From Actinomycetes bacterium (GTDB lineage Bacteria > Actinomycetota > Acidimicrobiia > Acidimicrobiales > Bog-793), in the NCBI GenBank assembly GCA_021796455.1, contig JAKACA010000003.1:1-49880 (forward strand): a stretch of 49,880 bases of DNA. Direction: 5' to 3'. The notes under the pieces are model-generated. The model did not search any database and had not been told where the DNA came from. It worked only from the letters and a program-made list of their open reading frames with translations. This document shows positions 15,934-32,814 of this stretch, one piece after another. The position numbers and the translations under genes were made by a program. Position 1 is the stretch's first letter. Each line of letters starts with the position of its first letter.

Positions 15934-17235
15934 ATGACATCTAGGCGCCGGCAGGGCATCGCTGTCGTCACCGCCGTAAGCCTCGTTGTTCTTCTTGTCG
16001 CCGGAGGAGCGTTCGCCCTTTCCCGACGTGGGGCACACGGCTCCGGTCCCGGCACGGCCTTCTCCAGTACTACGACGACAAACCCTTATGCCGCGCGAGA
16101 AGCCGCCGCCGTGCTCGCCGCCGAAGGAGCCGTGAACCTGCCGCTCGCCTCCGTAAGCGGAGCGACCGTCCCCCGACTAGCCAAGCGTCCCTACCGCCAT
16201 CCCCTCGGTTCGCACGAGGTGGTGGGCTTCGTGCCTTACTACGAGCTCGGCTCGCTTGCGGGGACGCACCTTGCAGCCTTCACGTACCTCGTCTACTTCG
16301 CCCTGCAAGTGCGCGCCGATGCAACCCTTGTCGAGAGCAGCACCTCCGGCGGCTGGAGGTCCCTACAAGACGGACGAGCTTCCGGTCTCTTGACAACCGC
16401 GCGTGCTGGAGGCGACCGTGTCCTTCTGAGCGTGTTCGCCGATCGCCAGTCAGTTCTCCAGGGCCTCTGCTCCCAACCGGTCACTGCTGCTCGACGCCTC
16501 GCAGACAGCCTTGCCCCGCTGCTCTCGCGCTACGGCTTCGCCGGAGTCGACCTCGACCTCGAGGGCAGGAACCCCTCGGACCGAAGTGGTTTCACCGCAT
16601 TCGTGACAGCGCTGTCCGGTCGCCTCCGTGCCATCGACCCTTCGTGGAACCTGATGCTGAACGTGTTCCCGCAGTCGGCTGAGTACCCCGGCGGCATCTT
16701 CGACCTGCAGGCACTGGCGCCGTCGGTGAACGAGCTGTTCGTCATGGCATACGACATGAACAGCACCGAGGTTCCCAGTCCGAGCGCCCCACTTTTTGGC
16801 AGTGGGCTGAGCGACGCAGCTGCGCTCGCCACCTACTCAGCCGAGGGACTGGCTGCAAAAGTGATCCTCGGAGTGCCCTTTTACGGCTACGACTTTCCCG
16901 CGCTCGGTCCCTTGGTCGGCGAGCCGGCCTACGGGCAGCCATATGCGGTCACCTACGACGACATCGTGGCCTCGATCACCGACAACGGCCACAAGCCACG
17001 ATGGGATCCCTACAGCGACACTCCGTTCATCTCGTTCAAACGAGCGGGAAGGTGGCACCAGACGTGGTACGACGATCCCGCCTCCGTCGCCCTCAAGGTC
17101 GCGCTGGCTGCCCAGTTTCATGTCGCGGGAGTGGGGGCCTGGGAGCTCGGGATGGTGGAAGGTCAGCCGAAGATGATCTCCGTTCTCGCCGGAGGCTCCC
17201 CGGTCGTAAAGCTCCCACTGCCCCACCAGCCCTGA
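15934..17235 (+). CDS. Membrane-anchored or secreted GH18 glycoside hydrolase
   Basis: N-terminal TM/signal; VVGFVPYY, GVDLDLE (DxDxE), VMAYD, LGVPFYGYD, GVGAWELG. ATG 15934 preferred over ORF start 15823. Confidence 0.85.
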   Translation: MTSRRRQGIAVVTAVSLVVLLVAGGAFALSRRGAHGSGPGTAFSSTTTTNPYAAREAAAVLAAEGAVNLPLASVSGATVPRLAKRPYRHPLGSHEVVGFVPYYELGSLAGTHLAAFTYLVYFALQVRADATLVESSTSGGWRSLQDGRASGLLTTARAGGDRVLLSVFADRQSVLQGLCSQPVTAARRLADSLAPLLSRYGFAGVDLDLEGRNPSDRSGFTAFVTALSGRLRAIDPSWNLMLNVFPQSAEYPGGIFDLQALAPSVNELFVMAYDMNSTEVPSPSAPLFGSGLSDAAALATYSAEGLAAKVILGVPFYGYDFPALGPLVGEPAYGQPYAVTYDDIVASITDNGHKPRWDPYSDTPFISFKRAGRWHQTWYDDPASVALKVALAAQFHVAGVGAWELGMVEGQPKMISVLAGGSPVVKLPLPHQP

Positions 17236-17353: not shown

Positions 17354-20300
17354 GTGGCCACTTTCCTACAACCTTGGATGGGTGAACAGGTGCCTACCGA
17401 GGCGTCAAGGATCGCGATACCGGGATTTGATGTCGTAGAGGAGCTCGGCCGCGGAGCGACGACGGCGGTGTACCGCGCGGTTCGCCAAGGTCAGGACTTC
17501 GCCGTCAAGATGCAGCAGCTGAAGGGACCCGACGACCCCGCCCGGCTCTACTTCCGCCGCGAGGCGGCCATCCTTGCCGCGATCCGCCACCCCTGCCTGG
17601 GCAAGGTCTTCGAGGTGGGCGACGACGGCAGGATCTGCTATCTCGTAATGGAGCTCATCGGCGGGCGGACCCTCGGGCAGGCAATCGCAGAAGAAGGCGC
17701 CCTTCCTGAGCTTCGAGTGCTGTCGATAGCTGCCGACGTAGCTGCCGCCCTGGACGTCGCTCACCGCGTAGGGCTCGTGCATAGGGACGTCAGCCCGCGC
17801 AACGTCGTGCTCAGAGACGACGGGCGGGCCGTTCTCATCGACTTCGGCCTCGCGACGCACACCGGCACCCGCCAGCCAGAAGATGCCGTAGTCGGCACGG
17901 TGCTCTACAGCGCTCCCGAGCAGACAGGAATGGCACGCCGCCCGGTCGACAGGCGGTCCGACCTGTACTCCCTCGGCGCCGTGCTCTTCGAGTCTGTGAC
18001 GGGCCGTCCGCCATTCAGGGCGTCCGACGCCGGCGAGGTCGTCCGTATGCACGCCATGCTCACCGCTCCCGACGCGCGCTCGGTCGAGCCGAACGTCTCT
18101 GTCCAGCTTTCCCGGATCATCGCGCGGCTCCTCGCGAAAGATCCAGACGACAGGTACCAGGACGCCAGCTCGCTCCACTCGGACCTGGAGGCGCTCCGGA
18201 GCGGGAACCTCTCCGAAGATGCCCCGCTCGGCAAGTCGGTTGTCGGGCGGGCGTCGACGAGCATGACCCTCGTCGGTCGCAATGCCGAACTGGCCGCGCT
18301 GCTCGAGGTGGCCAACGACACCCGGGCCTCGAGAACCGGCGCCTCGGTCATCATCGAGTCGGAGCCCGGCGGGGGCAAGACACGCCTCGTCTCCGAACTG
18401 GCTCTGATCGCGCGCGGCAACGGGATGACCGTCATCGAGACCAACATCGGCCTCGACCATCCCGGGCCACTTGGACCACTAGCTCTGGCGCTCGGGCGTC
18501 ACCTGGCGGAGCTCGAGACCCGCGATCCCGACATGCTCGCGCACCTGCGCCGAGAGATGGGCATTGACAGAGCTGGAGCGGCGGTCTCGCTCCTCGGCTT
18601 GTCGCGCGAGCTCGACCGATTCCTCTCCGCGCCGAGCGAGCGCGGATCGGACGGCGGCTTCCACGACTTCGCGGTGATCGAGGCCGCCCACCTGGTCATG
18701 TCCGTCGCGACAGCCTCACCGGGTGGGATGCTTCTCGTTGTCGACAACGCCCACTTGGCTGACGACGCCACCCATCGCGTGCTCGCGTACCTGGCACCCG
18801 AGCTGGACCGTCTACCCCTTGTGATCGTCCTCACCGCTCGCAGTGATCCCGCGCACGGGTTCGCGCTCGGGCGACTCCGCTCCGAGATGGGCGAAGCGGT
18901 GCGGCGTAGGATCGAGCTCCCACCCCTCAGCGACGCGCAGATCGAAACCGTCCTTTCATGGCAGCTGGGTGGCGACGCCCTCGATCCGAGCCTCGCGAAC
19001 GAGATAACTATTCGCGCCAACGGCAATCCGTCCGCGGCGGTTGAGTACCTCCGGGCCGCGCTCGAGGCCGGAGTGCTGCGGCCTTATTGGGGGACGTTCT
19101 CCGTCGATGCCGAGGCGCTCGCGGGCCTCGACCTGCCCACCGACGTCCGTGGCTTGGCATTGCGCCGCCTCGACAGCCTCCGCCCTGCGACCCGCTGGCT
19201 GCTCACCGAGGCCGCCCTCGTCGGATCAAGCTTCGGTGTCGGCCTGCTGGCGACGATCACGAACTGGTCGACAGCGGACCTCTACCTTGCCCTCGGAGAG
19301 GCGGCAGGCGCTCGGGTGATCGAGCAGCAGGACAGCGACCGCTACGTGTTCCTCCATGACGGCGTACGAGATGTCCTGCTGCGTTCAATCGACAAGAAGG
19401 CGGCGAGGCGTGCCCACGAGGTGCTCGCGCGGGCGTTGCAGGAGACGGGCGAGAGCCGGCCGGAGATCGTCTACGAGATCGCGCGTCACTACGCGCTCGG
19501 TGAGGTCGAATCCGACCCGGTCCGGTCTTTTCAGGCAAACCATCGTGCCGCCCGCCTGGCGCTCGCGGCACAAGCCGACGACGACGCGCTCGAGTTCCTG
19601 GCCGCAGCCGAGGCCATCACCGTCGAGCACCGGCTCCCCGCCACGAGTGCCTTCGAGACGGACTACGGCACAGCTCTGGCCCGCAGCGGCAGGGTCGATC
19701 TTGCCCTTGGGCACTACGAGAAGGCCCTGCGCCTGGAACGAGAGCCGATAGGCCGCTCACGAATCCGCGAGCACCTCGCACATGTCTACCTTGCCCAGTC
19801 AAACGGGACGGCGAGCCTCGAGCACGCCCGCGAAGGGCTCTCAGAGCTTGGAAGATCCCTGCCGCAAAGTGGAGCCCTCCTGGCCGTCTCCACGCTCTGG
19901 CGCAGCTTGCTCGGTCTCCTGGTCGGGGTGACACGAGTCGGATTCGGGCGGGCAAAGCGTGCCAAGAGAGAAAAGCTCCGCCTCGAGTGCCGCCTCCTCG
20001 AGGTGGCCGGCGACGCGGCGGACCTGGAGCACCGTGCGATTCTCGCCGTCGGGATCGCCCTAAGAGCACTGGCGCCGGCGAACCGTCTCGGGCACTCTCG
20101 TGAGTTCGTCGGCGTCTACGCCCACCTGGGCTCGATCCTTGCCCAGGTGAGGCTCGTGGGCTTCGCCCGTGTCGTCGCGCGGCACACGACGCGGGTCGCC
20201 CAAAAGACCAACGACCAGGGGACTATCGTCCATGCAAAGCTGCTCGAGGCAATCAGCCTCGAGCTGCAGGGGTGTTCCGTCGAATCCCAGCAGCTGCTGG

Positions 20301-22747
20301 CCGAGGTGCTCCGCCACGAGGCGCGCTGGTTGCAGCCGGGAGAGTACCTAAGTGGCGTGCTCGCCGCATGCGTCGGACTGGGCCTTCGAGGCAGGGTACT
20401 CGAGCAGGTAGCGTGGGTCGAGGAGGCGACCTGGCACTCCGGCAGGGCCACGCGCCTCGACAACGGAGCAGTCAACGGGCTCGACTTCGTCGGGATCGCC
20501 ATAGCTGGTCTCCTGGAACAGCCGACGCTCGGCCTCGAGCGGATAGCGCGCGTAAACGAGCGGTTCGCCGCCGCGGAGCCATCCCGGATAGCGGTTGCCG
20601 GCTATCAGGTCGCGCTTGCAACGTTTCATTTCGGCCTGAACGAGCTGGGCCAGCCGTTCGAGGAAGCTGTCGCGCGTTTTCGGGCTCAGCGCCTCAGGCC
20701 GTGGAACTGTCCCTACAACCTCTCGTCTTTTTGGATAGTGCAGGCCCTTGCTCGGCTGTCGCAGCTGCTGAGCTGCACTGAGGAGGACCGCAGAGCATGT
20801 ATCCGCTCGGCCCGAAGAGCAGCCCGTGAGCTTCGCCTGGCATCTCGCACCCCGCTCATGCGGGCGTACTACTTCGGTGCCCGTACCGGCCTTCTCGTGG
20901 CAAAGGGTCGCTTCAAAGCGGCGCTGCGCTCGAGCTCGAGGGGACAGGCACTGCTCGTCGGCCTCGATGCTCCGGGAGCCGAGATGGCAATCCAGATGGC
21001 CCGGAGTCGTGCCCTTGACGGCGCGGGCTTCCACGAGGAGGCAGAGCGAATGGCGGTGGCGGCCGCCCGACTGTCGGAAGACCTCGGCCTCACGGCATTC
21101 GTCCGCTGGACTCAGCCTCCGGTCTCGGAACGCTCGCGAAGAAACCCTTTCGGCCACTCCCTGCGCCAGTCGATGAGCGGGGTCCCCTTGCGGGCGTCGG
21201 GGTTCCATGGGGCCGGGGGCGTCCGAGTCGCGAGCCGCGCAGCTCGTCAGCTCGAGGCCCTCCTGCAAGTGGGAGCGGCCGCAGCGCGCGTGCTCGACCC
21301 CGATGAGCTCGCTCGGCTCGCCCTCGACGAGACGGTCCGGATCCTTAGTGCCGAGCGGGCGCTCCTGTTCTTGACGAACGAGAACTCTGGCCTCGTGCGC
21401 CCGCACCTCGGGCGCGACGCCGCCGGAAACGACCTCAAGGAGCTGACCGGCTTCTCCTCGACCGTCGTCGACCGTGTCGTAGCCACCCGCGAACCGGTCG
21501 TGCTCACCGGAACTGAGGAGGGCGCTGCGCTCGGCTCGGAAAGCGCGGTGACCCACGGGCTGCGGTCGATCCTCGTCGCGCCCCTTCAGATCGAGGATCG
21601 CCTGCTCGGGGTCGTCTACCTCGACAGCAGGCTCGCGAAGGGTATCTTCACGAGAGACGACGTCGAGATCCTGAGCGCAATCACCTCGAACGTGGCGTTT
21701 GCTCTCGAGACAGCCCGGCTGGCCGAGGTGGAGATGTCGGTGGCGAGCGAGCGCCGCCAGCGCGAGGTCGCAGAGCTGCTCCGCGACTCGATGAGCGAGA
21801 TCGGCCAGAGCCTCGAGCCCCGTGGCGTTCTGCGATCGATACTGCACAACTGCGTCTCGGCGCTCAGTGCCGATGCGGGCGCCATCCTGCTCGCCGACGG
21901 TGAGCGTCTCGAGATCGCCTCGGCGGTGGGCGGCGGCGTGTCGCTCCCACCCGAGGGCTATGACCTTGCCCGGACCGATCAGCCCGAGATCGCCGAGGCC
22001 CTCCGCTCCCGCAAGCCCCTCTCTGTCGCGAGCGTCATCAGCGAGCGGAACTCACCGCTGTTCGGGCTCCTCGGGCGGGCCGGGTCGTTCATCGTCGCGC
22101 CACTTGTCGTGCGCGACCAGGCAGTCGGTGCCCTCGCGATAATCTCGCGGCGGCCCAACGCCTTCGGTCAGACTCAGACCGAGGTGGCCGCGGCTCTTGC
22201 CAACCAAGGCGTCGTCGCATACGAGAATGCACAGCTCTTCGCCCGTGTCCAGACCCTCGCGCAACGAGACGAGCTTTCTGGCGTGGCCAACCGACGGTAC
22301 TTCTTCGAGATGGCAGGGCGGAGCTTCCGGGACGCCCGCCAGGCGGGCACGCCCCTGTCGGCGATGATGCTCGACATCGACCACTTCAAAGATGTCAACG
22401 ACCGCTACGGCCACGCGTCGGGAGACGACGTGATCCGCGTCGTGGCACAGCGCGTGGCAAAGGTCATCGGGTCAGGTGACACGGTGGGTCGCTACGGCGG
22501 CGAGGAGTTTGCCCTTGTCGTGCAAGCCCCACTCGAGCAGGCGCACGCGCTCGCCGAGCGCCTGCGCCAGGCCATCAGCGAAACCCCGATCTCTACCGCC
22601 TCTGGTCCGATAGAGGTCACCGCATCGGTGGGCGTGGCCGAGATGGACGGGCGCGATCTCGACCTGGGCCGCCTCCTGCAACGGACCGATGCCGCTCTTT
22701 ACGAGGCCAAGCGGGCGGGGCGGGACCAGGTGGTCACAGCGTTTTAG
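17354..22747 (+). CDS. Ser/Thr kinase - STAND (AAA_16-like) ATPase - TPR-like - GAF - GAF - GGDEF diguanylate cyclase
   Basis: Kinase: LGRG, AVK, HRDVSPRN, DFG, APE, DLYSLG. Walker A SEPGGGKT (18359-18382), Walker B LLVVD. Two GAF-like segments (~21290-21720, ~21800-22240). DELSGVANRR, DIDHFKDVNDRYGH and GGEEF (22496-22510). Alternative start ATG 17378. Confidence 0.88.
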   Translation: MATFLQPWMGEQVPTEASRIAIPGFDVVEELGRGATTAVYRAVRQGQDFAVKMQQLKGPDDPARLYFRREAAILAAIRHPCLGKVFEVGDDGRICYLVMELIGGRTLGQAIAEEGALPELRVLSIAADVAAALDVAHRVGLVHRDVSPRNVVLRDDGRAVLIDFGLATHTGTRQPEDAVVGTVLYSAPEQTGMARRPVDRRSDLYSLGAVLFESVTGRPPFRASDAGEVVRMHAMLTAPDARSVEPNVSVQLSRIIARLLAKDPDDRYQDASSLHSDLEALRSGNLSEDAPLGKSVVGRASTSMTLVGRNAELAALLEVANDTRASRTGASVIIESEPGGGKTRLVSELALIARGNGMTVIETNIGLDHPGPLGPLALALGRHLAELETRDPDMLAHLRREMGIDRAGAAVSLLGLSRELDRFLSAPSERGSDGGFHDFAVIEAAHLVMSVATASPGGMLLVVDNAHLADDATHRVLAYLAPELDRLPLVIVLTARSDPAHGFALGRLRSEMGEAVRRRIELPPLSDAQIETVLSWQLGGDALDPSLANEITIRANGNPSAAVEYLRAALEAGVLRPYWGTFSVDAEALAGLDLPTDVRGLALRRLDSLRPATRWLLTEAALVGSSFGVGLLATITNWSTADLYLALGEAAGARVIEQQDSDRYVFLHDGVRDVLLRSIDKKAARRAHEVLARALQETGESRPEIVYEIARHYALGEVESDPVRSFQANHRAARLALAAQADDDALEFLAAAEAITVEHRLPATSAFETDYGTALARSGRVDLALGHYEKALRLEREPIGRSRIREHLAHVYLAQSNGTASLEHAREGLSELGRSLPQSGALLAVSTLWRSLLGLLVGVTRVGFGRAKRAKREKLRLECRLLEVAGDAADLEHRAILAVGIALRALAPANRLGHSREFVGVYAHLGSILAQVRLVGFARVVARHTTRVAQKTNDQGTIVHAKLLEAISLELQGCSVESQQLLAEVLRHEARWLQPGEYLSGVLAACVGLGLRGRVLEQVAWVEEATWHSGRATRLDNGAVNGLDFVGIAIAGLLEQPTLGLERIARVNERFAAAEPSRIAVAGYQVALATFHFGLNELGQPFEEAVARFRAQRLRPWNCPYNLSSFWIVQALARLSQLLSCTEEDRRACIRSARRAARELRLASRTPLMRAYYFGARTGLLVAKGRFKAALRSSSRGQALLVGLDAPGAEMAIQMARSRALDGAGFHEEAERMAVAAARLSEDLGLTAFVRWTQPPVSERSRRNPFGHSLRQSMSGVPLRASGFHGAGGVRVASRAARQLEALLQVGAAAARVLDPDELARLALDETVRILSAERALLFLTNENSGLVRPHLGRDAAGNDLKELTGFSSTVVDRVVATREPVVLTGTEEGAALGSESAVTHGLRSILVAPLQIEDRLLGVVYLDSRLAKGIFTRDDVEILSAITSNVAFALETARLAEVEMSVASERRQREVAELLRDSMSEIGQSLEPRGVLRSILHNCVSALSADAGAILLADGERLEIASAVGGGVSLPPEGYDLARTDQPEIAEALRSRKPLSVASVISERNSPLFGLLGRAGSFIVAPLVVRDQAVGALAIISRRPNAFGQTQTEVAAALANQGVVAYENAQLFARVQTLAQRDELSGVANRRYFFEMAGRSFRDARQAGTPLSAMMLDIDHFKDVNDRYGHASGDDVIRVVAQRVAKVIGSGDTVGRYGGEEFALVVQAPLEQAHALAERLRQAISETPISTASGPIEVTASVGVAEMDGRDLDLGRLLQRTDAALYEAKRAGRDQVVTAF

Positions 22748-22795
22748 AGCTGCGCGGCCGGGTATTTCGGCCACCTCCTCCTGGAATCGAGAAGA

Positions 22796-22805
22796 ATTAG
22801 CTAAT
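22796..22805. promoter_or_regulatory. AT-rich perfect palindrome ATTAGCTAAT between the two cyclase genes
   Basis: Read directly; lies 14 nt upstream of the GTG at 22820. Confidence 0.3.
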
Positions 22806-22819
22806 CTCCGCGCGCTGCT

Positions 22820-23626
22820 GTGCCGATAGTTGGAAACGTGCAACCAGGCATCGATGTCGGTGGCGTCGTGGACAGCCTCTCAGATGCAGCCAACTGCGAA
22901 GATCCCCGAGCCGAGCCGCTCCATGTCGTGGTGCCCGGATGGAGCACCGGCGAGAGCTCGAGCGATCACACGGCCCGGCTGCTCGGACTATCGGCCGATG
23001 AGGTCACGCGGCTCTCACAGGTCGATCTGCATCGAGCAGGCTGGGCCGAGGTAGTCCGCATTGCCGTCACCGACCCGCTCACCCGCCTTCCCAACCGCGC
23101 TCTTCTCCATGACCGTTTGAGACAGGCGATCGCTCGCCTTGCTCACGAGCCGACCGAGCTGGCCGTCTTGTTCATCGACGTGGACCGTTTCAAGCTCGTG
23201 AACGACACGCTCGGACACGGCGCCGGAGACGACCTCCTCGTCGCCATAGCCAACCGGCTCTCGCAGACGCTGCGGATGACGGACACGATCGCCCGCTTCG
23301 GAGGAGACGAGTTCGTCGTGCTGGCAGAGGACGTAAGCGACGCGGCAACGGTCCTAGCTCTCGGTCAACGCCTCATCGAAGCTGTCGCGGAGCCGCTCGA
23401 GATCGCAAGTCACACCATGACCCCGAGTATCAGTGTGGGCATCACGATCGCCTTCCGGTCCTATGAGGAGCCCGCCGAGCTGATCCACCTCGCCGACCTG
23501 GCGATGTACCAAGCCAAGGATGCCGGCGGCGGTCGCTGCATGCTGGCCGAGCCGCGGGCCGACTCTCCTCATCGAAGCCAAGATGCCGCCCTTCGGCAGT
23601 GCGATCCCTGGAGCGCCGCAGGATGA
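22820..23626 (+). CDS. GGDEF diguanylate cyclase with a short unrecognised N-terminus
   Basis: TDPLTRLPNR, LFIDVDRFKLVNDTLGHGAGD, I-site RMTD (23273-23284), GGDEF (23300-23314), ADLAMYQAK. Confidence 0.88.
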   Translation: MPIVGNVQPGIDVGGVVDSLSDAANCEDPRAEPLHVVVPGWSTGESSSDHTARLLGLSADEVTRLSQVDLHRAGWAEVVRIAVTDPLTRLPNRALLHDRLRQAIARLAHEPTELAVLFIDVDRFKLVNDTLGHGAGDDLLVAIANRLSQTLRMTDTIARFGGDEFVVLAEDVSDAATVLALGQRLIEAVAEPLEIASHTMTPSISVGITIAFRSYEEPAELIHLADLAMYQAKDAGGGRCMLAEPRADSPHRSQDAALRQCDPWSAAG

Positions 23627-23700
23627 CCCCTGCGCGGTGGTGATCGGGTGCTTTTCGAGCTACGACTCCGCGGACCGGCTAAAGCGCGCCACCGACCCGT

Positions 23701-23979
23701 CTACTCGCCGGAGCTCTCCTCGACGATGTCGGCGAAGTGACGGACGAGACGTGACTTACGCCGGGCGGCCTGGTTCGAGTGGATGACACCCTTGGCGGCA
23801 GCCTTGTCGATGCGTTTGACAGCGAGGCGGAGTCGCTCTCCCATGTCCTCGGCACCGGTCTCGGCCGCCCGTAGCGCCCCCTTCGTCCGCGTCTTCAGCT
23901 CGGAGCGAACAGCCTTGTTGCGCTCGTGGCGCAGCTTGTTCTGGCGGTCTCGTTTTATCTGACTCTTTATGTTGGCCAT
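23701..23979 (-). CDS. rpsT: 30S ribosomal protein S20
   Basis: [14 protein letters not shown]...[11 protein letters not shown]...[22 protein letters not shown]. Confidence 0.98.
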
Positions 23980-24048
23980 GTCTTCCTCAGGCGCGACTAT
24001 CTACCGGCTCAGAACCTAGGTGTGCAGGGTCAAGATACTAGCAGCGGC

Positions 24049-24060
24049 GTAGGTACCTAC
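24049..24060. promoter_or_regulatory. Perfect 12-bp palindrome GTAGGTACCTAC in the divergent rpsT/lepA region
   Basis: Read directly; function unknown. Confidence 0.3.
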
Positions 24061-24119
24061 CCGTCACGCCCGGACCCGACCCGGCAGGCATGCCCGAGGT
24101 GGCACGATGGACTCCCGCC

Positions 24120-25907
24120 ATGATCCCCATAGACCAGATTCGCAACTTCTCGATCATCAGCCACGTCGACCATGGCAAGTCGACGCTCTCCGACCGCATC
24201 CTCGAGCTCACCGGGGCCGTAGATGCCCGCGAGATGCGCGAGCAGTACCTAGATTCGATGGACATCGAGAGAGAGCGGGGCATCACGATCAAGGCCCAGA
24301 ACGTGCGCGTGCATTGGCAAGGCCACACCCTCCACCTCATCGATACGCCGGGTCACGTCGACTTCGGCTACGAGGTGAGCCGGTCTCTCGCGGCATGCGA
24401 AGGGGTGGTTCTGCTGATAGACGCGTCACAGGGGATCGAGGCCCAGACCCTGGCCAACTGCTATCTCGCCATAGAAAGTGACCTCGAGATCGTCGCCGCG
24501 CTCAACAAGATCGACCTTCCCGCGGCAGATCCCGAGCGCTACGCAAGCGAGATCGAAGCTGTGCTCGGGCTGCCGGCAGAATCCATCTTGCGCATCTCGG
24601 CCAAGACCGGCGAGGGAGTGGCGGCTCTCCTCGATGCCGTGATCGAGCGGATCCCGGCACCGAAAGGTGACCAGGACGCAGCGCTTCGCTCCCTCGTCTT
24701 TGACTCGCTCTACGACCAGTACCGGGGCGTCGTGAGTGCTGTGCGCGTCTTCGACGGCGTGCTCCGCTCCGGGTCGAAGATCCGGCTCTTCCACGCCGCG
24801 ACGACCCACGACGTCGAAGAGGTCGGGTTCCGGGCGCCTCACAACACTGCGGCCACCGAGCTCGGCCCGGGCGAGGTCGGCTACCTCATAGCGGGGATCA
24901 AGGCGGTATCGGAGGCTCGCGTCGGCGAAACGGTCACAGATGCCGCCAACCCGGCCGCTTCACCTCTCGATGGCTACCGTGACCCGAAACCGATGGTCTT
25001 CTGCGGCCTGTACCCCGTGGAGGGAGACGACCTTCCCGGTCTGCGCGACGCTCTCGAGAAGCTCAAGCTCTCTGACGGTTCCATCACTTTCGAGCCTGAG
25101 ACCTCGGCGGCCCTCGGGTTCGGCTTCCGGTGCGGGTTCCTCGGCTTGTTGCACATGGAGATCGCTCGCGAGCGCCTCGAGCGCGAGTTCAACCTGTCGC
25201 TCATCGCGACGGCTCCCTCTGTCGCTTATCTCGCGCAGCTCACGAACGGCCAGACGATCGAGGTCGACAACCCTTCGGTCATGCCTGCGGCCCAGAGCGT
25301 CGACTCGATCTCCGAGCCGATGCTTCGCCTCACGATCATCACGCCCTCCGACTACACCGGAACGATCATGGACCTTTGTCAGAGCCGTCGCGGAACGCTC
25401 GTGAAGATGCAGTACCTCTCACCCGAGCGGCTGGAGCTCATGTACCGCGTTCCCCTCGCCGAGGTGGTCATCGATCTCTTCGACCAGCTGAAGAGCCGGA
25501 CCAAAGGGTACGCGAGCCTCGACTACGAGACCGACGGGTACGAGGTCGAGGATCTCGTGAAAGTCGACATCCTCTTGAACGGGGCTCCTGTGGACGCATT
25601 CAGCTCGATCGTTCACCGGGCCCGCGCGCAGGACTACGGGCGCAAGATGGTCGCCAAGCTCCGCGAGCTCATCCCCCGCCAGCTCTTCGACGTTCCCATC
25701 CAGGCCGCGATCGGCGGACGCATTATCGCCCGTGAGACAGTGAAAGCCAAGAGGAAGGACGTCCTCGCGAAGTGCTACGGGGGTGACATCACTCGCAAGC
25801 GCAAGCTCCTCGAGAAACAGCGGGAAGGCAAGAAGCGGATGAAAACGATCGGGCGCGTCGAGATACCCCAGGAGGCGTTCATCTCGGCGCTGAGGCTCGA
25901 AGAGTGA
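24120..25907 (+). CDS. lepA: Translation elongation factor 4
   Basis: [65 protein letters not shown] 24120 preferred. Confidence 0.98.
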
Positions 25908-25984
25908 TCTCTTGGCTCCTTTTGGGCTCGTTTTCCCGGCTCTGGCCCTGCTCGGGACGGATCGACCGATAAAATCAATTTCCT

Positions 25985-27037
25985 GTGAGCAGCACCGGGG
26001 AGACGAAGGAGCTTGACGAGCGCAAGGCCGCCATCTTGAACACAGTCGTAACCGACTACGTCGAGAGAGCCCAGCCTGTCGGCTCGTCCCAGGTCGCCCG
26101 CGATCCGAGCATCGAGGTGTCGACCGCAACCATCAGGGCTGACATGGCGGCGCTCGAGCGGGAGGGCTACCTCATGCACCCTCACACGAGCGCGGGCCGG
26201 GTTCCGACCGACAAGGGATACCGCTTCTTCGTGGACCACCTTGCCCAACCGCTGCCCCTCGGAGAGGCCAAGCAGGAGCAGATCCAGGAATTCTTCTCAC
26301 GCGCCCATGGCGAGCTCGAGAGGATGCTCGCCGACACGAGCCGACTGCTCGCGCACCTGACCGACAGCACTGCAATTGTGGTCGGCCCGGAGTCCCCCGG
26401 CCACGAGCGCCTTGTCGTCCGCTCCGCGCTGCTTGCCCGCATCTCCACGCGAGTCGCCCTCCTCGTTGTCGTGCTCTCGAACGGGGTCGTCGAGAAGCAT
26501 CCGATCGCCCTTGACGCCGAGGTAGCTGACAGCGACATCGACACCGCCAGCAGCTATCTGCAGCAGCACGCCGTCGGTCTCTCGATAAGTCAGCTGGCAG
26601 CCGGTGGAGTGCACCTGCCTGCGACCGGTCTCACCGAAGTGGACGCGCTCCTGACTGCAAGCCGGAACGCCCTCGGCGGGGTGGAGGACGCGGATTTTGC
26701 GAACGACCATGTCTTCGTCGGTGGCGCCGCGAGGATGGCTGACCGTTTCGCCGAAGTGGACCAGGTGAGGGCAATCCTCGGCATTCTCGAGCAGTCCTTC
26801 GTAGTGGTGTCATTGCTCCGTGACGTGCTCGCTCAGGGCCAGTCCGTCGCCATCGGCTCCGAGCACGGGCTAGCTCCCCTCGCCGAATGCTCGCTCGTTG
26901 TCGCGCCGTTCGCAGGCGAGGACGACAACACGGGCACGATCGGTATCCTCGGGCCCACGCGTATGGACTACCCGCAAGCTCTCGCCACAGTCGCCGTAGT
27001 CGGCCAACGACTGTCGCGAGAGCTGAGACGCGGTTGA
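25985..27037 (+). CDS. hrcA: Heat-inducible transcription repressor
   Basis: AQPVGS, SxATIRADMAALE, HPHTSAGRVPTDKGYRFFVD, GILGPTRMDY. Confidence 0.96.
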   Translation: MSSTGETKELDERKAAILNTVVTDYVERAQPVGSSQVARDPSIEVSTATIRADMAALEREGYLMHPHTSAGRVPTDKGYRFFVDHLAQPLPLGEAKQEQIQEFFSRAHGELERMLADTSRLLAHLTDSTAIVVGPESPGHERLVVRSALLARISTRVALLVVVLSNGVVEKHPIALDAEVADSDIDTASSYLQQHAVGLSISQLAAGGVHLPATGLTEVDALLTASRNALGGVEDADFANDHVFVGGAARMADRFAEVDQVRAILGILEQSFVVVSLLRDVLAQGQSVAIGSEHGLAPLAECSLVVAPFAGEDDNTGTIGILGPTRMDYPQALATVAVVGQRLSRELRRG

Positions 27038-27049
27038 GCGAGACCGAGA

Positions 27050-28225
27050 TTGGCCGACAGCACCATCAAGCCACCGATCCCGGATACAGACACCTTGCCC
27101 ACTGACTACTACGACCTCCTCGGCGTCGACAAGAGCGCGAGCGAAGACGAACTGAAAAAGGCCTACAGGGCGCTTGCTCGCGAGCTCCATCCCGACGCGA
27201 CCGGGGGCAATGCCGAGACAGAGGCCCGGTTCAAGGAGGTCACGCTTGCCTACGAGACTCTCCGCGACCCAGAGCGGCGCCGCCGCTATGACATGTTCGG
27301 CCCCGAGGGCGCCCGCGGCTCGGGCGCGGGCGGCGGAGCCGGGGAGCCGTTCGGTTTCGGCGGCAACCTCGGGGACATATTCGACGCCTTCTTCGGCGGC
27401 GGAGGGGGGGGTTTCGCGTCCCAACCCCGACCCGGCGCCCGGCGTGGGGCCGACGCCGAGGTAGTCCTCGACCTCTCGCTCGAGGACGCCGCGTTCGGTG
27501 GGACCAAGGAGCTCTCGGTGACCGGTCTCGTCGCCTGCGCGACCTGCTCGGGCAGCGGTGCGAGGCAGGGGACGACACCTACGACGTGCCCGGACTGCCG
27601 TGGCACCGGACAGGTGCAACGGGTCCGCCAATCGCTGCTCGGGCAGATGGTGACGGCCACACCGTGCACTCGATGCCAAGGTGCCGGCGAGACGGTTGCG
27701 TCCCCATGTCCAGACTGCCGCGGTCAAGGAAGGCGTAGCGAGGAGCGGACGCTCACCATCAACGTGCCACCCGGTGTCGACAACGGCGCCACGCTACGGG
27801 TCGCCGGCGCAGGTGCAGCCGCGCTCCGGGGCGGGGTGGCCGGAGACCTGTATGTCCATCTGCGAGTGGCCGCCGATCCGCGTTTCGACCGGTCCGGCGA
27901 CGATCTCATCGCGACAGTTCACATCCCTTTCACCCAGGCCGCCCTCGGTACCTCCTTGGACGTCGCGACCTTGGACGGCTCGTCGCATATCGAGATCCAA
28001 CCCGGGACACAGTCGGGAAAGATCATCCGCCTGAGTGGCCTGGGCGTGCCGAGGCTACGGGCACGAGGACGGGGAGACCTGCTTGTGCACATAGTCGTCG
28101 ACACTCCCACCAAGCTGTCGAAGGAAGAAGAGGAGTTGCTTCGCCACCTCGCCGAGATACGCGGCGAGGTGGTCGCGCCACCTGAGCACGGCCTGCTGTC
28201 CCGCTTGCGGTCGCGGATCAACTGA
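27050..28225 (+). CDS. dnaJ: Chaperone DnaJ
   Basis: DYYDLLGV, HPD, G/F-rich region, four CxxCxGxG motifs. Confidence 0.97.
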   Translation: MADSTIKPPIPDTDTLPTDYYDLLGVDKSASEDELKKAYRALARELHPDATGGNAETEARFKEVTLAYETLRDPERRRRYDMFGPEGARGSGAGGGAGEPFGFGGNLGDIFDAFFGGGGGGFASQPRPGARRGADAEVVLDLSLEDAAFGGTKELSVTGLVACATCSGSGARQGTTPTTCPDCRGTGQVQRVRQSLLGQMVTATPCTRCQGAGETVASPCPDCRGQGRRSEERTLTINVPPGVDNGATLRVAGAGAAALRGGVAGDLYVHLRVAADPRFDRSGDDLIATVHIPFTQAALGTSLDVATLDGSSHIEIQPGTQSGKIIRLSGLGVPRLRARGRGDLLVHIVVDTPTKLSKEEEELLRHLAEIRGEVVAPPEHGLLSRLRSRIN

Positions 28226-28256
28226 GACCGCTCCGAGGATCGGAGCCGGCCAGCGG

Positions 28257-29168
28257 GTGAATGACTACATCTCGATACCACCGCTGCTACGCGACGCATC
28301 TGCTCTCATATACGTCGACGACCTGGAGACGCCGGAAGTGCGTGCCGAGGACTCTCGACACCTGTGGACGGTGCTTCGTCTGCGGCCAGGAGAGACCGTC
28401 GTCGTGTCCGACGGGCAGGGGCGCTTCCGCGGCTGCACTGTGGCCGCCACGTCCATCGGCAAGGCCCCGGAAAAGCCCGTAGCACCCGCGCAGACCGCGC
28501 AGCGCGCGCGGCGTAGGGGACAAGGCGGCGCTCTCGTCCTCCTGCCCGCCACCGAGGTGATGGAGGGAAGGAGAGCCGTGCCGGCTCTGACAGTGGGTTT
28601 CTCTCTCGCCAAGGGAGACAGGAATGACTGGGCTGTCGCCAAGCTTTCCGAGCTCGGGGTGGACCGCATCGTTCCGCTCATGTGCGAGCGCACGGCCGTC
28701 CGCTTGAGCCCTGAGCAGGCGCTCCACCAGCATGAGCGTCTTCGACGGATCGCGCGGGAAGCCTCAATGCAGGCTCGCCGCATCTGGCTCCCCGAGGTGC
28801 TGGACGTGGTCGCCCTCGCGCACGCGCCGTCAAGGCTGGGTAGTGACGCGCGAGCAGGGGTCGGGGGCGGCGGTGTCGGGGAGGTCGGGGGCGGCGGCAT
28901 CGGGGGGGTCGGGGGCGGCGGCATCGCCTTGGCCGAGCCGGGCGGGCCCGGTCTGTCGCTCGCCACCCCGACGGTGCTGGTCGGCCCGGAGGGTGGCTTT
29001 GCCCCCGGCGAGCTCGCCATGGGCTTGCCCGTAGTTGGCCTCGGTGCCACAGTCCTTCGGATCGAAACGGCCGCCATCGCCGCTGGCACGATCCTGTCGG
29101 CCCTGAGGTCCGGCTTGCTGTCGGCGACCTCAGCGGTCGACGACCCGCGGCGGTGCCGCCCGCGGTGA
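28257..29168 (+). CDS. rsmE: 16S rRNA m3U1498 methyltransferase
   Basis: HLWTVLRL, KLSELGVDRIVP, EASMQARR, VGPEGGF, LGATVLRIETAA. Confidence 0.92.
   Translation: MNDYISIPPLLRDASALIYVDDLETPEVRAEDSRHLWTVLRLRPGETVVVSDGQGRFRGCTVAATSIGKAPEKPVAPAQTAQRARRRGQGGALVLLPATEVMEGRRAVPALTVGFSLAKGDRNDWAVAKLSELGVDRIVPLMCERTAVRLSPEQALHQHERLRRIAREASMQARRIWLPEVLDVVALAHAPSRLGSDARAGVGGGGVGEVGGGGIGGVGGGGIALAEPGGPGLSLATPTVLVGPEGGFAPGELAMGLPVVGLGATVLRIETAAIAAGTILSALRSGLLSATSAVDDPRRCRPR
28857..28928 (+). repeat. In-frame 24-bp repeat x3 (GVGGGGVG/EVGGGGIG/GVGGGGIA) inside rsmE
   Basis: Units at 28857, 28881 and 28905. Confidence 0.85.
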
Positions 29169-29177
29169 CGCTCGACC

Positions 29178-29208
29178 GCTCAGAGTAGTAACCTCGAACG
29201 CGTAAAGT
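29178..29208 (+). promoter_or_regulatory. Putative bldD promoter with motif GCTCAGAGTAGT and -10 TAAAGT
   Basis: 12-mer at 29178-29189; TAACCT at 29189-29194; TAAAGT at 29203-29208. Confidence 0.4.
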
Positions 29209-29268
29209 GGTAATAGGAACGCGGGCGGCGGTCAGGAGCTACAGCGGGCGCCGAGCGTCACCCAGCCC

Positions 29269-29296
29269 GTGCGCCGGGCCGTGTGCGCCGGGCCGT
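29269..29296 (+). repeat. 14-bp tandem duplication GTGCGCCGGGCCGT x2 in the bldD leader
   Basis: Units at 29269 and 29283. Confidence 0.85.
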
Positions 29297-29310
29297 CAAC
29301 AAGGGGACAC

Positions 29311-29895
29311 ATGCGCAGTGCTGTAGTTAGGATCGCAAACAACGAGCTGACCGACGAGGACGTGGCAGGCTACGCACAAGCCGTCGGCCTCCGCCTGCGC
29401 GCGGTCCGCCGGCAGAAGCGGCTCTCCTTGCAGGCAGTCGAGCGCGCGTCCGCAGAGGAGTTCAAAGCCTCGGTGCTCGGCGCCTACGAGAGAGGCGAGA
29501 GGACCATCTCCGTGCCGAGGCTGCAGCGCCTGGCGCAGATCTACTCCGTGCCGGTCGACCAGCTCCTACCTGCTGACATGTCGCAGCCGCTCGGCAGGGC
29601 TGGTACCGCCTCGGGCCCGTCGCGCTCTGGTGCTGCCGGAGAACGACCGGTGAGGAAGATCACTATCGACCTCGTTCGCCTCAACGAAGTCACAGGCCCA
29701 GAACGCGATCTGCTTCGCCATTTCCTTGCCTCTGTACAGGTGCAGCGCCAGGACTTCAATGGCAAGGTGATCACTATAAGAGAAGCCGACCTTCGCGTGA
29801 TGGCGTCGATGTTCGGCCGTAGCGTCGAGGCGCTCGTCAACCGCCTCGAGGAGCTCAGCCTGATCCACCACGCCACCAGGAACGGGCAGAGCTGA
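29311..29895 (+). CDS. bldD: BldD-family XRE transcriptional regulator with c-di-GMP-binding C-terminal domain
   Basis: YAQAVGLRLRAVRRQKRLSLQAVE...GAYERGERTISVPRLQRLAQIYSVPVDQLLP and KITIDL...QRQDFNGKVITIREADLR align with Streptomyces BldD as I recall it (KLVLDL...QRGDYNGKVLSIRQDDLR); AAGGGG RBS before ATG 29311. Confidence 0.88.
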   Translation: MRSAVVRIANNELTDEDVAGYAQAVGLRLRAVRRQKRLSLQAVERASAEEFKASVLGAYERGERTISVPRLQRLAQIYSVPVDQLLPADMSQPLGRAGTASGPSRSGAAGERPVRKITIDLVRLNEVTGPERDLLRHFLASVQVQRQDFNGKVITIREADLRVMASMFGRSVEALVNRLEELSLIHHATRNGQS

Positions 29896-31091
29896 CAAGC
29901 TCCCTCGCTGGAGCCGACGATCTCGGTCCCAGCACCGCCGAGCTCGCCCAAGCAGGCCTGCCGCCGATATCGCCCGGCGTCTACGTCCACGTTCCATTCT
30001 GTGCGAGCCGGTGCGACTACTGCGCGTTCACTACCTTCACCGACCGCCACCACCTGGCATCGAGCTACGTCGATGCATGCCTGAGAGACTACGAGGCCCA
30101 TCGAGAGGCCTGGCCGGCACGCCCTGGCACCATCTTCATCGGCGGGGGCACTCCGAGCCAGCTCTCCGGACGAGACTTGAGACGACTCGTCTCGGCTCTG
30201 GATGCTTTCCCGGACGCCGAGGTCACCGTCGAGGCCAACCCCGAGGATGTGACGCCTGCATGGGTCGCAACATGTCGCGCAGCGGGCGTCAACCGGATCT
30301 CGCTCGGCGTGCAGTCGCTTGATCCGGCTGTGCTCAAAGGCCTGGGACGGCAGCACGACCCGGCGGCTGTGGCTGTGGCCGTCAGGAACATCGCAGCCGC
30401 CGGCATCGCGAGCTACAGCGTTGATCTCATCTACGGAGGCGCGGGCGAGACCAACGAGAGCTGGACGAGGACCCTCGAGGGAGTGCAACAACTCGATCCC
30501 CGTCCTGGTCACGTCAGCGCTTACGGGCTCACTGTCGAAGCCGGTACGCCGCTTGCCCTTGACCAGAGTCGTCACCCCGACGACGACACCCAGGCCGCGC
30601 GCTACGAGATTGCCGAGCAGATGCTCTCGGAACACGGATACAGCTGGTACGAGATCTCGAACTGGTCGCTTCCCGGCCAGGAATCACGCCACAACCTCAA
30701 CTACTGGATGGAGGGCGACTACCTGGGACTCGGCTGTGCTGCCCATAGCCACCGGGCCGGACGGCGCTGGTGGAACGTGCGCACCCCCGAGCGCTATATC
30801 GATCTGATCACAAGGAAAAGCTCCCCGGAGTCAGTCTCCGAAACCCTCTCAGTGTCCCAACGCCGCCTCGAATCCCTGGAGCTGGCGGTGCGAACCCGCC
30901 TCGGCGTTCCTCGCTCTGCGCTCGCATCGGCTCTCGGGTCGGAGCCTGCTGTCACCGACCTGGTCGCGATCGACCCGAGATCGGGACGGTTGGTGCTCAC
31001 AGTGCGCGGCAGGCTGCTCGCCAACGAGGTCGCGTGCCGCTTACGCCCAGATGCTCCAGAAGTGGCCGAGATGACCTCCCCTGCCCGCTAG
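29892..31091 (+). CDS. hemW: Radical SAM heme chaperone HemW, probable CTG start
   Basis: VYVHVPFCASRCDYC (CxxxCxxC at 30000-30023), FIGGGTPS, TVEANP, NRISLGVQS, YEISN and HNLNYW are all in frame with the ORF-track ORF at 30177; no ATG/GTG/TTG upstream of the Cys motif. Confidence 0.85.
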   Translation: MTSSLAGADDLGPSTAELAQAGLPPISPGVYVHVPFCASRCDYCAFTTFTDRHHLASSYVDACLRDYEAHREAWPARPGTIFIGGGTPSQLSGRDLRRLVSALDAFPDAEVTVEANPEDVTPAWVATCRAAGVNRISLGVQSLDPAVLKGLGRQHDPAAVAVAVRNIAAAGIASYSVDLIYGGAGETNESWTRTLEGVQQLDPRPGHVSAYGLTVEAGTPLALDQSRHPDDDTQAARYEIAEQMLSEHGYSWYEISNWSLPGQESRHNLNYWMEGDYLGLGCAAHSHRAGRRWWNVRTPERYIDLITRKSSPESVSETLSVSQRRLESLELAVRTRLGVPRSALASALGSEPAVTDLVAIDPRSGRLVLTVRGRLLANEVACRLRPDAPEVAEMTSPAR

Positions 31092-31092
31092 G

Positions 31093-31329
31093 ATGGCCGG
31101 CATGGCCGAGCCGATCACCTGGATGAGCACGCCTGCGGTTGCTGAGTACCTCGGCGTGAACACGCGCACCGTGTACCGCCTGATCGACGAGGGTGAGCTG
31201 CCGGCATACAAGTTCGGCAGGGTTATACGCCTCCAAGAGTGCGACGTCATCGCGTTCGTCGAGCGGAGCCGCATAGCCCCCGGGAGCCTGGAGCACCTCT
31301 ATCCCGAGCCCGTGCGCTCCGAGGGCTGA
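31093..31329 (+). CDS. Small excisionase-like/MerR-type HTH DNA-binding protein (HTH_17, the family that includes BldC)
   Basis: MSTPAVAEYLGVNTRTVYRLIDEGELPAYKFGRVIRL. Confidence 0.85.
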   Translation: MAGMAEPITWMSTPAVAEYLGVNTRTVYRLIDEGELPAYKFGRVIRLQECDVIAFVERSRIAPGSLEHLYPEPVRSEG

Positions 31330-31344: not shown

Positions 31345-31686
31345 ATGGAGTGCCTTTTCTGCGCGATCGCCGCCGGTGACATCCCATCCACCGAGGTGCT
31401 CTCGACCGAGCTGTCCTACGCTTTCCGCGACCTCCATCCGGCAGCTCCGACCCATGTGCTGGTAGTGCCGCGCGAGCACGTCGCGGACGCGGCTGCCCTC
31501 GACTCCTCCGACGGGGACATGATCGCGGATCTCTTCTCGACCGCGCGGGCTGTGGCGCAGGTGGAGGGGCTGGAGGAACGCGGATACCGCCTGGTGTTCA
31601 ATGTCGGCGAAGATGCAGGCAACAGCGTGCCCCATCTCCATCTCCATGTCCTAGGTGGCAGGCATATGGCCTGGCCGCCAGGGTGA
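31345..31686 (+). CDS. hinT: Histidine triad nucleotide-binding protein
   Basis: CLFCAI, AFRDLHPAAPTHVLVVP, VPHLHLHVLGGR. Confidence 0.93.
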   Translation: MECLFCAIAAGDIPSTEVLSTELSYAFRDLHPAAPTHVLVVPREHVADAAALDSSDGDMIADLFSTARAVAQVEGLEERGYRLVFNVGEDAGNSVPHLHLHVLGGRHMAWPPG

Positions 31687-31782: not shown

Positions 31783-32814
31783 GTGACCCCTTCCCAAGCC
31801 AAGATCCTCGTTCCCGGCAACCACCTCATGGTGGGGCTGCTCGGGCAGAAGGACGAACTGCTGCGGACGGTCGAGCGGGCCTTCCAAGGCAACACGATCC
31901 ACGTCCGTGGCAACGAGATAACTGTCGAGGGCCCCGATGCTGGACGCGTCGCCCACCTTTTCGAGGAGCTCGTCGCGCTCCTCGAGCGCGGACACTTCGT
32001 CGACGAGGCGAACATCGGACGCTCGATCGAAATGCTCCAGGAGGACATGAGGCCCTCTGAGGTGCTGACCACGGAGGTGGCTCGATCCCCAAAGGGCAGG
32101 AGAGTCCACCCAAAGACAGCGGGCCAGAAGCGTTACGCCGAGGCGATCACCGAGAATGTGATCACGTTCGGCATTGGGCCGGCAGGTACCGGGAAGTCCT
32201 ACCTGGCCGTCGCCCTTGCCGTGCAGGCGCTCCAGGCCAAAGAAGTCAACAGGATCATCCTCACGAGACCGGCGGTCGAGGCCGGCGAGCGGCTCGGCTT
32301 CCTTCCCGGAGATCTCCTAGCCAAGGTGGACCCGTACCTAAGGCCCCTGTATGACGCCCTCTACGACATGCTCGAGCCGGAGGGAACCCAGCGGCTCATG
32401 GAGCGGGGCACGATCGAAGTCGCGCCTCTCGCCTATATGCGAGGCCGCACTCTCAACTCGAGCTTTGTGATCCTCGACGAGGCACAGAACACCACACCTG
32501 AACAGATGAAGATGTTTCTCACGCGAGTGGGTTTCGGGACGAGGGTCGTCGTGAACGGCGATGCTACCCAGATCGACATCCCCGGAGGCCGGTCAGGCCT
32601 CATAGGACTCGAACCCGTGCTCGGAGACATTGAAGGGGTGGCGTTCGTCCACCTGACGCAAGCGGACGTAGTTCGCCACCGTATAGTCCGCGAGATCGTG
32701 AACGCGTACGATCGCTTCGCGGCATCGCAGGCGGGGATCACCATCCCCGAACCAAGAGTGACGGACTCCGGTCACGGTGCCGGCCAGGCGGGCCCGATCG
32801 CGCACGTGAGCTGA
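31783..32814 (+). CDS. phoH: PhoH family ATPase (YbeZ-like)
   Basis: GPAGTGKSYLA, ILTRPAVEAGERLGFLPG, MRGRT, LDEAQNTT, GDATQID, VVRH. Confidence 0.95.
   Translation: MTPSQAKILVPGNHLMVGLLGQKDELLRTVERAFQGNTIHVRGNEITVEGPDAGRVAHLFEELVALLERGHFVDEANIGRSIEMLQEDMRPSEVLTTEVARSPKGRRVHPKTAGQKRYAEAITENVITFGIGPAGTGKSYLAVALAVQALQAKEVNRIILTRPAVEAGERLGFLPGDLLAKVDPYLRPLYDALYDMLEPEGTQRLMERGTIEVAPLAYMRGRTLNSSFVILDEAQNTTPEQMKMFLTRVGFGTRVVVNGDATQIDIPGGRSGLIGLEPVLGDIEGVAFVHLTQADVVRHRIVREIVNAYDRFAASQAGITIPEPRVTDSGHGAGQAGPIAHVS

Follow-up and report, generated by a model that had tools for sequence, protein, structure and literature searches.

A BldD orthologue in a conserved housekeeping gene block of an Acidimicrobiales bacterium and the accessory diguanylate cyclase genes beside it

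Introduction

The stretch of DNA analysed here, in the following referred to as the window, comprises 49,880 nucleotides of contig JAKACA010000003.1 (assembly GCA_021796455.1). It carries an orthologue of the regulator BldD within a run of housekeeping genes and, separated from it by the genes rpsT to rsmE, two tandem genes for proteins with GGDEF domains, the signature of enzymes forming cyclic di-guanosine monophosphate (c-di-GMP). A sequence-only reading had listed these genes together with hemW and a small HTH_17 protein, had considered the DNA to be probably from Acidimicrobiia and had proposed a BldD-centred lifestyle switch driven by an NLR-like cyclase. All listed genes were recovered in their places (open reading frame list, Pfam, NCBIfam; Table 1), the housekeeping genes indeed separate both blocks, and the names of the homologues point to Acidimicrobiales within that class. 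Our analysis indicates that the lineage probably possesses a c-di-GMP-responsive BldD, which would hold for the whole order and beyond, and that the bldD block and the cyclase genes are likely unrelated units which became neighbours by descent. The genome is a metagenome-assembled one from mine drainage and sediment, and the locus occurs in metagenomes from mine drainage, sediment and tailings. Genomes, contigs and loci are cited by our own numbers (G, C and L).

The BldD orthologue and its c-di-GMP signature

The bldD gene most likely starts at the ATG at position 29311, as in its closest database relatives. Its N-terminal part is an XRE-type helix-turn-helix (HTH) domain (Pfam HTH_31 and HTH_3) which matched the DNA-binding domain of Streptomyces coelicolor BldD (PDB 2ewt/4ob4) with an E-value of 9.6e-16 over residues 34-101 (phmmer). 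The C-terminal domain (CTD) belongs to PF21179 (BldD-like_C; 8e-17; bit score 61.2, gathering score 27) and retrieved the PDB entries 4oaz, 5khd and 4oay, c-di-GMP-bound CTD structures among them, at about 1e-9. The c-di-GMP signature consists of R146-Q-D148, eight residues and R157-E-A-D160 (nucleotides 29746-29790). In the alignment to the BldD structures QVQRQDFNGKVITIREADLR sits on QSQRGDYNGKVLSIRQDDLR, and the signature matches column by column, RQD-FNGKVITI-READ on RGD-YNGKVLSI-RQDD. The pattern RxD-x8-RxxD is therefore kept, and the statement of the sequence-only reading that both c-di-GMP-binding motifs are present was borne out by a strongly conserved RQD-x8-READ. Among the positions at which Streptomyces BldD touches c-di-GMP (K84, I110, R114, D116, N118, S123, R125, D128 and R130; PMC4151990), all are identical in the window's protein except I110 and S123, which are replaced by V and T, respectively. 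Judged by these residues, the protein probably binds c-di-GMP.

The match to the NCBIfam equivalog for BldD, NF050110 (TransRegBldD), spans profile positions 4-158 of 162 and scores 133.7 bits, below the cut-off of 250 bits; the model seems to have been adjusted to proteins closely related to that of Streptomyces. A full-length match below the cut-off thus marks a divergent orthologue. With the Streptomyces-type sequence the protein shares about 40% identity, compared to 77-99% reported among sporulating actinomycetes (PMC4151990). It has the same architecture of XRE HTH and CTD as Streptomyces BldD-(c-di-GMP)4 (PMC4151990; PDB 4OAZ, 4OAY, 2EWT) and shares with it the RxD-x8-RxxD signature, the accessory contacts, the presence as a single copy, the co-occurrence with GGDEF enzymes and, in the order, recurrent box-like palindromes 5' of bldD. 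It differs in reading RQD/READ instead of RGD/RQDD, in a longer Gly/Ser/Ala linker and in its gene context, dnaJ-rsmE-bldD-hemW; the bldD of the one Streptomyces-like genome in the sample has another location, next to a NusB-like motif.

The distribution of the protein was followed in 41 relatives from the order. One copy is present in the window's own genome, and the BldD_C domain was found in 38 of the 41 relatives as well as in 92 of 251 genomes drawn evenly from the phylum, many of them only 2-4 Mb in size. The signature is intact in 32/34 relatives and in 17/18 loci sampled across the phylum. An alignment of 19 families of the phylum leaves R146, R157 and D160 as the sole invariant positions of the CTD, and D148 is nearly so. 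Such conservation speaks strongly, though indirectly, for a binding of the ligand. Two relatives, G028 (L054) with RSG and G032 (L057) with RQS, have lost the aspartate of the first motif and retained RxxD; the genome of G032 encodes only four GGDEF domains. These two proteins may be natural ligand-blind variants.

A c-di-GMP-responsive BldD in this lineage was foreseeable from earlier literature. Chandra and Chater (2014; PMC4255298) reported a 'convincing' bldD orthologue in Acidimicrobium ferrooxidans, of the same class as the gene in the window, considered bldD to be ancient and suggested that in simple actinobacteria it possibly governs the entry into stationary phase. Their review predates the discovery of c-di-GMP binding and contains no description of the signature, the hrcA-dnaJ-rsmE context or the order-wide distribution given here. 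In the library searched, no paper named BldD together with Acidimicrobiia.

The housekeeping block and the start of hemW

For the comparison of gene order, up to 20 kb around bldD were taken from 34 relatives and the proteins of the window were mapped onto them; 80 further named Acidimicrobiia bldD loci served as an additional sample. The succession hrcA-dnaJ-rsmE-bldD followed by hemW is kept throughout the order, and the entire run from rpsT to corC across the window's family, with rpsT on the minus strand as the divergent outer edge. Of the 72 informative loci in the additional sample, 62 have rsmE immediately 5' of bldD. The arrangement lepA-hemW-hrcA-dnaJ-rsmE-bldD-(hit)-phoH-ybeY-corC is shown by other orders of the class and by two other phylum-level families. 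Because the order of the block recurs in other orders and classes, bldD is an old resident of it.

Table 1 Features of the window discussed in the text
Feature	Position	Strand	Basis
GH18 (chitinase-like) gene	15823-17235	+	Pfam Glyco_hydro_18, 6.6e-28
Kinase-STAND-GAF-GGDEF giant cyclase, 1797 aa	17354-22747	+	Pfam, translation
Small GGDEF protein, 268 aa	22820-23626	+	Pfam GGDEF, 1.2e-47
rpsT	23701-23979	-	Ribosomal_S20p, 1e-24; synteny
lepA	24090-25907	+	Pfam, NCBIfam
hrcA	25985-27037	+	Pfam, NCBIfam
dnaJ	27050-28225	+	Pfam, NCBIfam
rsmE	28257-29168	+	Pfam, NCBIfam
Genus-conserved element 5' of bldD	29175-29211		Alignment of 10 congeners
bldD orthologue, 194 aa	29311-29895	+	PF21179, PDB matches, NCBIfam
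hemW, radical-SAM haem chaperone	29892-31091	+	TIGR00539, 263 bits
Excisionase-type HTH_17 protein	31093-31329	+	PF12728, TIGR01764
HIT-family gene	31345-31686	+	NCBIfam; synteny
phoH	31783-32814	+	NCBIfam; synteny
ybeY	32822-33361	+	NCBIfam; synteny
corC/CNNM (corC-like)	33358-34713	+	NCBIfam; synteny

The place of hemW varies. Its position is between lepA and hrcA in the other Acidimicrobiia orders and in other classes (L069-L077) and after bldD in Acidimicrobiales, so that it moved to the 3' end of bldD in the ancestor of the order. In some lineages (G031, which is L056, as well as L146 and L161) lepA and hrcA flank a small GGDEF gene of opposite orientation; the G031 genome has no more than four GGDEF domains, this one included, and such cases amount to no statistical enrichment. 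In the window, no ATG, GTG or TTG occurs between the upstream stop codon and the CxxxCxxC motif of hemW (29892-30023). A CTG overlapping the TGA of bldD (CTGA) is kept in the window as well as in G003, G005, G007 and G009, that is, in five species of the genus, and hemW probably starts at this codon. The conserved CTGA suggests that, in the genus, hemW is initiated at CTG or is coupled to bldD in translation.

Candidate BldD sites upstream of bldD

BldD of Streptomyces recognizes the box TNAC-N5-GTNA (PMC4151990). This Streptomyces-derived consensus was searched for within 300 bp 5' of bldD, and exact boxes were present in 6/35 genomes, representing six genera, in comparison to 6/246 control upstream regions (Fisher p=0.0013). 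An autoregulation of bldD via a box like that of Streptomyces is therefore plausible in the order. In the window, the genus-conserved element just past the stop codon of rsmE contains two degenerate 15-bp palindromes, ACCGCTCAGAGTAGT (29175) and AACGCGTAAAGTGGT (29197), which are 22 nt apart. Both have two mismatches to AYCAC-N5-GTGRT, and they overlap a -10-like box of the type TAnnnT (TAACCT). Two sites with at most two mismatches occur in 2.4% of the intergenic regions of the same genome, and the element is likely the promoter and operator of bldD. Perfect copies of AYCAC-N5-GTGRT precede bldD in G012, G017 and G031.

This palindrome occurs 14 times in the window's own genome, ten of these sites being intergenic, whereas versions with spacers of N3, N4, N6 and N7 have one intergenic site each and N8 has four. 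The genes next to these sites form no uniform set (purN, a Phd antitoxin, an HTH protein of insertion sequence type, gpsA, an SbcD-like gene and others), and a BldD regulon could not be defined from them. Spacer specificity was also considered for the shorter form YCAC-N5-GTGR. In coding DNA, N5 and N8 palindromes, whose half-sites begin at a distance of 10 or 13 nt from each other, reach about half the frequency of their N3, N4, N6 and N7 counterparts, presumably due to codon phase. This deficit inflates the N5 enrichment expressed as an intergenic fraction, so that absolute intergenic counts have to be compared; these were equal across spacers, and the apparent specificity was largely a codon-phase artefact. 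Likewise, the genome-wide intergenic enrichment of TNAC-N5-GTNA was not specific for the spacer: N6 was enriched as strongly, which therefore reflects composition. A listing of exact palindromes 5' of bldD in 35 genomes revealed none that is order-wide, the sole candidate being GTAAC-N9-GTTAC in four congeners. In an iterative position weight matrix built from the bldD upstream regions, nine near-identical congeners outweighed the rest, and the published consensus was used instead. A scan for sigma-70 promoters and terminators was uninformative, and Rfam returned no riboswitch in the window.

The position of bldD in the block also allows for a different role of the protein. It could be an XRE regulator that acts independently of c-di-GMP on the housekeeping genes around it (hemW and genes for heat shock or ribosome maturation) and whose RxD-x8-RxxD residues serve another ligand or a protein contact. 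The divergence from the Streptomyces protein, visible in both the equivalog score and the overall identity, would agree with such a role, as would the fixed place in a stress and ribosome block, the overlap with hemW and the retention of the gene in G028 and G032 despite the altered first motif. Against it stand the recurrence of BldD-box-like palindromes 5' of bldD and the presence of GGDEF genes in every genome with BldD (41/41 relatives, with 2-38 domains each), and we consider this role unlikely.

The cyclase genes

The larger of the tandem cyclase genes encodes a protein with a Pkinase domain (aa 26-270), an AAA_16 domain (306-492), two GAF domains and a GGDEF domain (1636-1792; all Pfam). 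In the translation the kinase core appears intact by eye, with a Gly-rich loop, the lysine of FAVK, HRD and DFG. In the catalytic loop, HRDVSPRN, Ser takes the place of the usual Lys of HRDxKxxN and an Arg follows two residues on, as in the loops of tyrosine kinases (HRDLAARN). AAA_16 matched at 3.2e-13 and contains the Walker A motif GGGKT and a Walker B motif of the type hhhhD. A P-loop NTPase is thus followed by a long helical region, as in STAND proteins; Pfam gave no match in the approximately 800 aa after AAA_16, and some homologues show TPR families. The GGDEF domain (PF00990, 4e-42) has GGEEF and DxDxFKxxND intact, and at the position of the inhibitory I-site GSGD replaces RxxD. PknK of Mycobacterium tuberculosis and regulators of the MalT/AfsR type resemble the giant cyclase in combining a kinase, a P-loop NTPase (AAA_16), a long helical region and an output domain in this order; its output of two GAF domains and GGDEF is unlike the HTH of those proteins. 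Acidimicrobiales have many full-length homologues with this Pfam architecture, and such proteins occur also in Micromonosporaceae and Solirubrobacteraceae at 38-40% identity, where they are annotated merely as diguanylate cyclase. The architecture is widespread and uncharacterized.

The small cyclase carries a GGDEF active site, DxDxFKxxND and the I-site RMTD, so that, with GGEEF in the giant protein, the intact motifs described for the tandem genes could be read in both. Its orthologue in the congener G007 (L037 5359-7113) has 585 aa with three PAS domains and GGDEF. In some congeners this 585-aa 3xPAS-GGDEF gene shares the slot between giant cyclase and rpsT with a two-domain GNAT gene of opposite orientation; others (G001, G009) lack the small cyclase gene and have only the GNAT gene there. 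In the window (22820-23700) the GGDEF gene is the only one left, the PAS domains and the GNAT gene having been lost. The small cyclase is a remnant, a truncated derivative of the 3xPAS-GGDEF gene.

The closeness of bldD to the kinase-STAND-GGDEF gene is no sign of a common circuit: bldD is order-wide, and only some members of a single family have the giant cyclase. The latter was present in 15 of the 25 family genomes, comprising all ten of its own genus and members of five other genera, and absent from the remaining ten and from all 16 of the other families. In every genome that carries it the gene adjoins a GH18 gene. Wherever the pair is linked to the block, the cyclase occupies the junction of GH18 and rpsT; the exception is G017, where cyclase and GH18 are on a separate contig from the bldD block and the flank of rpsT is different. 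In six other genera without the cyclase, GH18 directly abuts rpsT. The giant cyclase thus represents a polymorphism, by insertion or deletion, of the GH18|rpsT junction, which is not part of the conserved block.

The own genome (3.57 Mb) encodes 19 GGDEF and 10 EAL domains and no HD_5 (HD-GYP) domain. In the window itself neither EAL nor HD-GYP was found. With 19 GGDEF domains in 3.57 Mb, a GGDEF cluster falls within about 7 kb of a given gene with a chance of about 7%, by arithmetic. Near bldD, one GGDEF was counted against 1.76 expected in 358 kb from 21 genomes without an adjacent cyclase, and in 1.22 Mb from the 80 further loci there were eight, the mean density across the relatives predicting about 6.6. 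Neither sample displayed an excess.

Upstream of the two window cyclases no exact TNAC-N5-GTNA was found. A conserved element 5' of the giant cyclase contains one site with two mismatches to AYCAC-N5-GTGRT, overlapping a TATGCT box; at least one such site is present in 21% of intergenic regions. A 12-mer, GCYCAGAGTRGT, was common to the upstream regions of cyclase and bldD and unique to both places, yet 49% of random intergenic pairs shared a match of 10 of 12 or better, and it was rejected. Elsewhere in the genome, a gene for a GGDEF-EAL protein of 1146 aa (C212:61829-65269) is preceded by two BldD-box-like palindromes 21 nt apart, TCAC-N5-GTRR and RCAC-N5-GTGY, about 80 and 58 nt 5' of the gene (C212:61700-61830), which are shared by eight species of the genus (L167-L176). 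With these palindromes, it is the best candidate for the control of a c-di-GMP enzyme by BldD in the lineage. A feedback of BldD on c-di-GMP enzymes may therefore exist in the genus, though not demonstrably on the window cyclases. The likeness to the BldD-regulated CdgA and CdgB of Streptomyces lies in the presence of GGDEF enzymes in an actinobacterium with BldD, one of them with box-like palindromes; the domain architectures of CdgA and CdgB differ from those of the window cyclases.

A dedicated local circuit would make the kinase-STAND cyclase the main input of BldD and a target under its control, with the linkage maintained by joint function. The linkage is indeed kept in the own genus (8/8 informative contigs) and in G013, G018, G021 and G023, the missing I-site could allow a high output of the enzyme, and both the conserved upstream element with its site over TATGCT and the palindromes on C212 would suit such a feedback. 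However, 23 relatives have BldD and no giant cyclase, G017 carries both genes unlinked, and eighteen other GGDEF domains are encoded in the genome. The divergent rpsT and four further housekeeping genes intervene, so that the cyclase cannot share a transcript with bldD. Together with the lack of an exact box 5' of the cyclases, the frequency of two-mismatch sites and the chance level of the 12-mer, this makes a local circuit quite improbable. Of the switch proposed by the sequence-only reading, BldD-(c-di-GMP) as the responding part is plausible, given the rich set of c-di-GMP enzymes; the drive by the neighbouring cyclase gains no support from proximity.

The HTH_17 protein

The small protein encoded after hemW had been assigned to the BldC family. 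It has 78 aa (range 75-78 aa), matches HTH_17 at 3e-14 and TIGR01764 at 6.6e-15 and ends in an invariant C-terminal tail, PGSLEHLYP. The family is single-copy and order-wide (37/41 genomes). Its best PDB matches were the mycobacteriophage excisionase (Xis) Gp37 and RdfS, Xis being found at 1.4e-3 with the protein and at 2e-5 with the family profile. BldC (6AMA) was not retrieved from the PDB at E<=1 by either. A direct comparison with BldC, using a query identical in sequence to 6AMA, gave 35% identity over 54 aa in BLASTP (E 6e-4) and an hhalign probability of 35% at 27% identity for the family profile. With the same query, the own genome yielded six weak hits, the best at E 0.004 to another open reading frame and none to the HTH_17 gene. 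By these PDB, BLASTP, hhalign and genome searches, the protein is not an orthologue of BldC. What stands of the assignment is the superfamily: like Streptomyces BldC (PDB 6AMA, 6AMK), the protein is a small single-domain HTH of the MerR/Xis-like type, a likeness at superfamily level only; specific similarity to BldC is lacking, and the PGSLEHLYP tail is its own. The absence of a convincing BldC from the genome agrees with the observation that simple actinobacteria seldom carry both bldD and bldC (PMC4255298). The excisionase matches suggest a domesticated Xis-like protein.

That the protein acts as a functional analogue of BldC, an architectural DNA-binding partner co-expressed with BldD in a true pair of bldD and HTH_17 without the cyclase, is the least probable of the explanations considered: the order-wide single-copy gene with its conserved tail, the fold class shared with BldC and the position directly 3' of bldD in 14/70 further Acidimicrobiia loci (L089-L128) and in G031, or after hemW in the window's family, would agree with it, yet the gene has no linkage to bldD in several families (in G033 the distance is 200 kb, in G034, G037 and G038 the contigs differ), resembles BldC in no specific way and may adjoin bldD just as a member of a common conserved block.

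Discussion

The genes of the window are ordinary orthologues, and the comparative analysis does not sustain a co-localized circuit of cyclase and effector with an NLR-like enzyme as its gate. We consider it likely that the bldD block and the cyclase island are unrelated units which are adjacent by descent, and that BldD reads the cell-wide pool of c-di-GMP. The caution of the sequence-only reading that the closeness might be incidental proved to be the better part of it, in view of the gene distribution, the synteny and the lack of GGDEF enrichment. The first unit (15.8-23.6 kb) would be an accessory island for c-di-GMP synthesis, consisting of GH18, the giant cyclase and the truncated GGDEF gene, restricted to part of one Acidimicrobiales family and presumably inserted later in a sub-lineage. 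The second (23.7-34.7 kb) would be the ancient supercluster rpsT | lepA-hrcA-dnaJ-rsmE-bldD-hemW-HTH_17-hit-phoH-ybeY-corC. With an old bldD block and a later insertion of the cyclase, the closeness seems to be a matter of inherited geography, not of a dedicated circuit, and BldD probably has no private link to the neighbouring cyclases.

The protein is expected to work as in Streptomyces. A c-di-GMP tetramer would bridge two CTDs via RxD-x8-RxxD, whereupon the XRE domains would bind DNA. BldD would read a pool set by the 19 GGDEF and 10 EAL domains, which thus provide many possible inputs. It would probably repress its own promoter, and bldD and hemW would share a transcript and, within this genus, be linked by translational coupling.

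Several observations weigh against this explanation. Streptomyces BldD targets cyclase genes, and the cyclase island adjoins the block in at least five genera, so that selection for the linkage may have played a part. The exact TNAC-N5-GTNA box was not found 5' of bldD in the window itself, and the equivalog score is below its cut-off. In public runs the locus is present only as low-depth contigs, and the metatranscriptome contigs were uninformative.

A more far-reaching proposal is tentative and, in our view, has the odds against it. BldD-(c-di-GMP) may be ancestral in a heat-shock and ribosome-maturation supercluster (lepA-hemW-hrcA-dnaJ-rsmE-bldD-hit-phoH-ybeY-corC) of early-branching Actinomycetota, coupled in this genus to HemW and often followed by an excisionase-like HTH. 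Its original task would then have been to connect c-di-GMP to growth arrest and proteostasis, not to sporulation, and the link to the cyclase would be incidental. To our knowledge, the Acidimicrobiales are, unlike Streptomyces, not known to sporulate.

The window adds detail, namely the conservation of the motif, the housekeeping context and the coupling to hemW, and no new principle. If BldD of this lineage binds c-di-GMP, the tetramer-bridged switch would be ancient and phylum-wide, extending beyond the sporulating Streptomyces. It would then also operate in non-sporulating lineages with small genomes that live in sediments and acid mine drainage, and BldD could no longer be regarded as specific to sporulation, an idea that was floated for Acidimicrobium in 2014.

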